This document shows positions 18,955 to 19,218 of a DNA stretch of 51,462 nucleotides, in pieces (positions within the stretch are counted from its first letter, which is position 1; each line of letters starts with the position of its first letter). The position numbers were made by a program, and so were the translations under genes. The DNA lies in UHGV virus genome UHGV-0127437; one strand, written 5' to 3'. Below the pieces are notes generated by a model, which was not told where the DNA came from, searched no databases, and worked only from the letters and a program-made list of their open reading frames with translations. The DNA comes from a virus.

Positions 18955-19218
18955 TCACTCCTCTATGCGCCAGCCTGCCGCCTTCCAGTTGTCCACTTCG
19001 TCAGGATGCACGTCTGCGGTGGTGGGCGCGCCGGGGAATGCCGGGAAGTCAGTGAACATAGCAACCAACTGAGCACCATCCTGCTCCTGCTCCTGCTCCT
19101 GCTCCTGCTCCTGCTCCTGCTCCTGCTCCTGCTCCTGAGAATTGTTTTTCGCCGCCAGTTCAGCAGCAAGTTTTTCCGCCGCTCGCTGAGCGCGCTGCTC
19201 TTTCGTCAATCCAGCCAT
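18955..19218 (-). CDS. Small head-associated protein with (EQ)n repeat
   Basis: ATG at 19218 preceded by GGAGGG; contains EQEQEQ... run encoded by ctgctc hexamer repeat; immediately downstream of major capsid gene and terminator hairpin. Confidence 0.5.
   Translation of the reverse strand: MAGLTKEQRAQRAAEKLAAELAAKNNSQEQEQEQEQEQEQEQEQEQDGAQLVAMFTDFPAFPGAPTTADVHPDEVDNWKAAGWRIEE
19081..19137. repeat. Hexanucleotide tandem repeat (ctgctc)x9.5 inside coding sequence
   Basis: Directly visible perfect tandem repeat; encodes (EQ)n on minus strand. Confidence 0.9.

Follow-up and report, generated by a model that had tools for sequence, protein, structure and literature searches.

In a Citrobacter koseri prophage, the small gene behind the major capsid gene contains a pure GAGCAG array. 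The array is a coding microsatellite of an ordinary kind, situated in a spacer that ranges from absent to about 140 residues among the homologues of the encoded protein. The array gains and loses whole GAGCAG units through replication slippage with the reading frame kept. We consider it probable that it is a coding VNTR, generated by slippage, in the dispensable spacer of a two-ended tether protein that docks on the capsid. A search of the literature found no specific paper on this repeat or on PHROG 1514, the family to which the protein belongs; what is new here is the family-wide hot spot for arrays, together with a first account of how PHROG 1514 proteins are laid out.

The stretch of DNA that was analysed (the window, 51,462 nucleotides) is a siphovirus-type prophage of C. 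koseri. The products of the genes at its ends are identical to UmuC (ABV12968.1) and an integrase (ABV13048.1), both proteins of C. koseri ATCC BAA-895. The umuC gene occupies 50..1315 on the minus strand, with a 141-aa ORF (1318..1743, minus strand) alongside at the place expected for umuD, and the integrase gene (49381..50667, plus strand) lies at the opposite end. No tRNA genes were found within the window. The late module, on the minus strand, encodes in order the large terminase, portal, a Mu-F-like head morphogenesis protein, a DUF6651 scaffold-type protein and the major capsid protein, followed by the small gene, the head-tail adaptor Ad1, a PHROG 3540 member, head closure Hc1 and a 68-aa hydrophobic ORF, and ends with tail completion, tail terminator, an Ig-bearing tail tube, tape measure and the rest of the tail. 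The strongly hydrophobic 68-aa ORF (17712..17918, minus strand, MQFLLLYLICGLPLGLF...), between the head-closure and tail-completion genes, had no match in PHROG. Gene calls in the identical loci L041-L043 include it, and it could represent a membrane 'moron' within the structural genes. The features around the array are the following.

20489..21253, minus strand: gene of the scaffold-type protein, DUF6651 (PHROG 784 and PHROG 206 'head scaffolding protein')
19266..20402, minus strand: gene of the major capsid protein, P22-coat/HK97-fold (PHROG 283 'major head protein', E 3e-130)
19235..19252, minus strand: hairpin with GC stem and UUCG loop, then a U-rich run, between the capsid stop and the ribosome-binding site of the small gene
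19222..19227, minus strand: ribosome-binding site GGAGGG, read from the sequence, with 3 nt between its end and the ATG
18955..19218, minus strand: small capsid-accessory gene, 87 aa plus stop, PHROG 1514 member
19138..19218, minus strand: basic N-terminal helix, residues 1-27 (MAGLTKEQRAQRAAEKLAAELAAKNNS), conserved in the family
19079..19137, minus strand: period-6 array (GAGCAG/CAGGAG), 9.8 copies, 100% matches, score 118 (Tandem Repeats Finder)
18958..19071, minus strand: C-terminal mini-domain, residues 50-87, about 37 residues (LVAMFTDFPAFPGAPTTADVHPDEVDNWKAAGWRIEE), predicted beta-beta-alpha-beta with pLDDT about 90 (AF2)
18541..18951, minus strand: gene of the head-tail adaptor Ad1 (PHROG 493, E 1e-42), starting 3 nt past the small-gene stop

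The small gene starts with the ATG at 19218 and ends at 18955, and its full product reads MAGLTKEQRAQRAAEKLAAELAAKNNS-Q(EQ)9-DGAQ-LVAMFTDFPAFPGAPTTADVHPDEVDNWKAAGWRIEE. An earlier note, made from the letters of the window, had located it directly after the major capsid gene, which was borne out by the PHROG 283 match; the 88-aa length given there had included the stop codon. The protein matched PHROG 1514, annotated as function unknown, over profile positions 1-58 of 58 (E 2.5e-28), and since the profile has only 58 positions, the repeat counts as inserted sequence in comparison with it. Scans of the protein against Pfam and NCBIfam returned only noise and no family, a sequence-profile search of the PDB gave no match, and the family records (phage records, source names) are all annotated as hypothetical protein. 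A search with the single protein yielded 306 homologues and one with the C-domain profile 707, and the family comprises 467 clusters at 50% identity. Relatives show a matching layout of the ribosome-binding site. At the other end of the gene, the last two codons, GAG GAG (18955..18960, minus strand), encode the conserved C-terminal EE and double as the ribosome-binding site of Ad1; together with the Ad1 start 3 nt past the small-gene stop, this arrangement suggests translational coupling.

The array corresponds to nucleotides 82-140 of the small gene, codes for Q28-(EQ)9 and is flanked in the peptide by S27 and D47 (S27-Q28-(EQ)9-D47). As the minus strand is the coding one, the unit reads GAGCAG in the sense direction. 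The tract had been described in the earlier note as perfect, in frame and encoding roughly nine EQ dipeptides, and all of this was confirmed: Tandem Repeats Finder gave 100% purity over 9.8 copies at 19079..19137, and exactly (EQ)9 is read in the translation. Perfect short units thus stand head to tail at 19079..19137, as in a VNTR. It is by far the strongest tandem repeat that Tandem Repeats Finder reported in the 51 kb window. A (CTGCTC)3 probe gave seven overlapping matches at 19081-19134 and none elsewhere in the window, and none in 100 dinucleotide-preserving shuffles. An 84-aa poly-Leu ORF on the plus strand (19006..19260) is an artefact, a by-product of the repeat. The window also holds an imperfect period-12 tandem repeat (39494..39538, 3.8 copies, 75% identity) in the early/regulatory half of the prophage, which could be iteron- or operator-like.

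Direct evidence for slippage came from prophages that are otherwise identical to the window at this locus. Over 6,263 aligned bases, L041 differs from the window in no base, and L042 likewise shows no mismatch over 6,251 aligned bases; the sole difference in each comparison is the number of GAGCAG copies, which is nine in the window, four in L041 (an ENA metagenome assembly, ERZ27281484, made with MEGAHIT) and three in L042 (the Logan assembly of SRR31655571), both of them short-read assemblies. The nine-copy allele is present on eight contigs. Copy number therefore differs within identical sequence (9, 4 and 3 units with flanks of ~6.2 kb), which is the behaviour of a VNTR and bears out the in-frame, slippage-type length change that the earlier note had proposed. 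The comparison across related prophages that it had called for likewise showed that the length varies, from 0 to about 140 residues at this site. Invariant length across relatives was not observed, and the slippage claim stands.

Arrays recur at the same site across the family. All family arrays begin at nucleotides 82-85 of the gene, consist of CAG-based units with periods of 3, 6, 9 or 12, and are 100% pure where they are long. Because the periods are all multiples of 3, the reading frame is never broken. The family arrays are the following.

Period 3: (CAG)19.7
Period 3: (CAG)45.7, a polyQ of about 46 residues, in Leclercia NCTC13032 (L010, LR590464.1, gene nucleotides 83-219), pure and listed as a chromosome assembly
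Period 6: GAGCAG, 3.8 to 9.8 copies
GAGCAGCAG, 8.6 copies
GAACAGCAG, 16 copies, in Klebsiella phage 5 LV-2017
CAGCAGGAACAG, 8 to 32 copies
CAGCAGGACCAG, 9 copies
12-mer, 32.2 copies, (EQQQ)32, 387 nt, in E. hormaechei B17-3 (L029, CP169086.1, gene nucleotides 85-471), pure and listed as a chromosome assembly

At the protein level, the units across the family are EQ, EQQ, EQQQ, DQ, DQQQ, EPQ, APQ, AST, EQL, EKQ and polyQ, and in some arrays a point change has been propagated in register. The E. hormaechei B17-3 member reaches 197 aa with its (EQQQ)32; tracts as long as this or as Q46 are unusual in bacterial or phage proteins. The pattern marks arrays that are born and lost through slippage, with maintenance of the reading frame as the only constraint. 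The distance between the conserved ends thus runs from nothing to about 140 residues within the family. At the lower end of this range are spacer-less proteins of 57-59 aa in E. ruysiae, Shigella, Atlantibacter and Tatumella, and these natural alleles indicate that the spacer is dispensable. In E. coli, the module occurs in 770 of 5,426 complete genomes (about 14%), and nearly all of the 60 E. coli matches listed span 348 bases, which fits the repeat-less 58-aa allele. As the common E. coli allele has no repeat, E. coli genomes are a poor set for counting alleles. A megablast search of the window locus against complete E. coli genomes gave no match, because the host is Citrobacter.

The family alignment indicates why such variation could be tolerated: the N and C ends of the protein are conserved and the middle is not. 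Among 49 sequences, M1, T5, E7, Q8, R9, R12 and A14 are invariant at the N end, and L51, M54, F61, G63, P65, A68, V70, H71, P72, E74, V75, N77, W78 and W83 at the C end. The N-terminal motif is kept in the betaproteobacterial relatives L038 and P0228 and is slightly altered in P0274 (MANLTKEQRAAR), and conservation of the mini-domain reaches Nitrospinota, Methyloversatilis, Pandoraea and a cyanophage. AlphaFold2 with the family alignment predicted a long helix over residues 6-47, in which pLDDT was 68-77 in the N-terminal part, where the helix begins at residue 6, and only 57-60 across the repeat. Judged from this alignment and prediction, the repeat is a spacer between a putative basic N-terminal helix and the C-terminal mini-domain, and the spacer is probably disordered. 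The repeat would be tolerated because it lies inside a dispensable, probably disordered spacer between two functional ends. Coding microsatellites in disordered linkers are ordinary. Fold searches against the PDB and predicted structures matched only family members and have little power for so small a domain; with Foldseek against BFVD, the sole match was a family member, the 97-aa Me-ZS1 protein, which likewise matches PHROG 1514.

The small gene is strictly associated with one capsid-protein family. In every locus with upstream DNA, a member of this family (38-100% identity) lies directly upstream of it, and the linkage extends to Nitrospinota, Methyloversatilis, Steroidobacter, Pandoraea and a Microcystis phage. 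Downstream, the Ad1 adaptor is swapped for an unrelated gene in many relatives. Two phages have this capsid family and lack the small gene: in Acinetobacter phage vB_AbaS_qsb1 (L049, 2695-3108) the post-capsid slot holds a 137-aa 'LEM-like domain protein' that is flagged structural, and in Rhizobium phage P106B (L050, 2755-3306) a 183-aa coiled-coil/TM-like protein. The post-capsid slot seems exchangeable.

The hairpin between the two genes (19235..19252) is terminator-like; it may act as a partial terminator or stabilise the mRNA, and in this way set the ratio of capsid protein to downstream products. Distant relatives, across phyla, keep a hairpin structure at this site with different stem sequences. 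The E-FI interval of lambda (L046, 1452-1506) has almost the same design, with a GC stem and UUCG loop, a U-run, GGAGG and ATG, and JBD30 has a weaker hairpin at the equivalent place after its capsid gene. A further terminator-like hairpin, a strong one with 8 pairs and TTTTTTAT after them (21320..21339, minus strand), is found immediately upstream of the scaffold-type gene; at the corresponding position in HK639 a terminator is annotated.

What the two ends of the protein do can be approached by comparison with known post-capsid proteins. We infer capsid binding by the small protein and contact with nucleic acid or terminase; the strict linkage to a single capsid family lends the former indirect support. 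The hallmarks of lambda gpFI are a C-domain that binds the major capsid protein, stimulation of packaging and absence from virions. In lambda, gpFI bridges the procapsid or capsid and the terminase-DNA complex (PMC13595911). By analogy, the mini-domain would dock on the capsid shell, and the basic N-terminal end, held on a flexible Q/E-rich tether, would contact DNA or the packaging complex, so that the small protein would be a functional analogue of gpFI and connect the procapsid with the terminase-DNA complex. For such a tether, the length of the spacer would be nearly neutral, as the range of natural lengths suggests. The gene for gpFI (DNA-packaging chaperone, PF14000, PDB 2LSM) likewise lies between the capsid and head-tail joining genes and, like the small gene, has a GC/UUCG hairpin, a U-run and GGAGG in front of it. 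In lambda gpFI an acidic flexible linker joins a helical N-part to a small C-domain, and this two-part layout is found again in the small protein. However, the small protein has 87 aa compared with 132 aa for gpFI, its N-part is a single basic helix instead of the HeH-like domain of gpFI, and sequence comparison was negative, with an hhalign probability of 0.45% against gpFI and no Packaging_FI (PF14000) match in the Pfam scan. A gpFI-like tether role is thus a serious possibility that we put forward tentatively, somewhat short of calling it likely.

The main alternative is that the small protein decorates the capsid, as the minor capsid protein gp39 of JBD30 does. The C-terminal mini-domain would then sit on the mature shell, for example at the three-fold axes, and the N-terminal helix with the EQ tract would form an outward, charged arm whose length varies. 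In JBD30, the gene directly behind the capsid gene encodes gp39, which was seen by cryo-EM as trimers on the capsid three-folds; the map does not resolve residues 1-52 of gp39, whose small beta+alpha C-domain binds the three-folds (PMC11445458). The N-arm sequence of gp39 is of low complexity with a basic start, so that gp39, with its small C-domain, resembles the small protein in overall layout as well as in gene position, and the strict linkage of the small gene to one capsid family would also suit a decoration protein. FluMu gp35 (FluMu_N, PDB 2OUT), to whose Pfam family gp39 is weakly matched (E 9.3e-5), adds a HeH-like C-terminal motif that is matched by the tether-end motif of distant PHROG 1514 members. 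On the other hand, the small protein is without similarity to gp39 or FluMu_N (hhalign probability 0.26%; no Pfam match), hhalign was negative for JBD30 gp40 as well as for gp39, and neither Pfam nor a PDB fold match indicated a FluMu_N or beta-tadpole fold, for which so tiny a domain leaves low power. The mini-domain comprises just 37 residues, whereas the gp39 domain has about 60 aa with a disulphide hairpin, and the capsid-protein family of the gp39 system differs from that of the window. The terminator-like hairpin before the small gene argues weakly for expression below the 1:1 level that decoration would need, and the strong conservation of the N-terminal motif points to another binding partner and not to a passive arm. 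As the hairpin, the gene position and the overall layout are common to the gpFI and gp39 analogues, they do not separate the two roles. Decoration is possible, and we regard it as rather on the unlikely side. A scaffold-like role, which had been raised from the sequence at the outset, is unsupported: the small protein matches no scaffold family, and the DUF6651 scaffold-type gene (20489..21253), called as a 254-aa gene in loci identical to the window, is separate and lies upstream of the capsid gene.

The tether design is also seen in distant members of the family. Among the best representative clusters, the mini-domain is at the C end in 93 of 147 and at the N end with a C-terminal extension in 21. 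The extensions in both orientations have an acidic, Pro-rich or Q-rich low-complexity spacer and a tip that is either Lys/Arg-rich or carries a motif weakly matching HeH/Rho_N/SAP. The Pfam matches of the tip motif (P0326 to HeH with E 1.4e-4, P0292 to Rho_N with E 3.4e-3, P0328 with E 0.011-0.075) are all below the Pfam gathering thresholds, though they agree with one another, and concern distant members, not the window protein. An N-end mini-domain followed by an acidic linker and a HeH/Rho_N-like motif is present in P0259, P0292, P0324, P0328, P0332 and P0326, the last of which has two mini-domains with one such motif between them. A profile of the tip motif matched the PDB weakly at FluMu gp35 residues 92-121 (2OUT, E 0.0024) and also gave a weak alignment with residues 1-35 of lambda gpFI (hhalign E 0.0031, probability 10%). 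These similarities are suggestive of a design shared by post-capsid genes, in which a floppy spacer connects a small domain for capsid docking to a tip that is basic or DNA-binding-like (HeH-like); this design would link lambda gpFI, FluMu gp35, JBD30 gp39 and the PHROG 1514 family. One 223-aa member, P0227, has a ParB-like N-terminal region joined to a complete 58-aa family member and is probably a gene-calling or assembly chimera, not a real fusion.

The length variation itself could be adaptive. As a phage contingency locus, the array would then adjust the reach of the tether or the charge of the capsid surface, with lineages selected for expanded or contracted arrays. The window array shares slipped-strand mispairing, pure arrays and stepwise length with bacterial contingency loci, coding simple-sequence repeats and CAG/polyQ tracts. 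Arrays recur independently at one site with different units, some are very large (387 nt or Q46), and the purity of the long ones indicates recent, ongoing turnover. However, neutral slippage in a dispensable CAG/GAG-rich spacer predicts an equal pattern, spacer-less alleles dominate in E. coli, and the nine-copy allele is stable across eight contigs. Unlike ON/OFF contingency loci, the family arrays change protein length only: all have a period of 3, 6, 9 or 12 and lie inside the ORF, and since the unit lengths are multiples of 3, there is no ON/OFF frameshift switching. We therefore regard selection for array size as unlikely. It is equally doubtful that the spacer is an evolvable 'ruler' that provides heritable steps in tether reach or charge, up to Q46 or a 130-residue EQQQ arm; if it were, it would tune packaging initiation or capsid surface behaviour and represent a structural-module contingency locus in temperate phages.

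The array in a dispensable spacer also has a precedent as a prophage VNTR. STTR6 has a unit of 6 bp in the MLVA scheme, and its repeat unit differs from GAGCAG. It lies on the Gifsy-1 prophage of Salmonella Typhimurium and is a VNTR used in MLVA typing; like the window array, it is an enterobacterial prophage VNTR whose alleles differ between closely related isolates (PMC3901673, PMC5183578). STTR6 belongs to a different prophage and locus and is a typing marker, not a family-wide hot spot. Prophage VNTRs as such are already known, as the example of STTR6 on Gifsy-1 demonstrates (PMC3901673).

Two further explanations fare worse. The repeat might act as DNA or RNA, forming a structure that affects transcription, translation rate or recombination, with the peptide incidental. 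CAG/CTG-type repeats can form hairpins, and the tract lies about 100 nt downstream of the conserved hairpin. Such a role is very improbable, because the repeat is missing altogether from relatives that share the gene order, the tract sequence is not conserved, and the units vary in sequence and period yet are always multiples of 3, as a constraint at the protein level predicts. Finally, a repeat locus of this kind is a known trap for short-read assembly, and both L041 and L042 come from short-read assemblies. We rejected the scarcely credible reading that the copy-number differences are assembly artefacts, because the assembly k-mers are longer than alleles of 3 and 4 units (18-24 nt), so that k-mers reaching from flank to flank should exist in the reads, because a collapsed 54-nt array would be expected to break the contig and not to give a clean shorter allele, and because large arrays are present in the chromosome assemblies LR590464.1 and CP169086.1 and lengths are graded across many independent protein clusters.

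Slippage in a spacer between two conserved ends has thus given a small capsid-linked protein a natural length series, which advances by 1-4 residues at a time and extends from 0 to about 140. Lysogens of C. koseri and other enterobacteria could be typed with this locus as a marker. The length series implies that the conserved ends function whatever the distance between them, which aids the dissection of the family.
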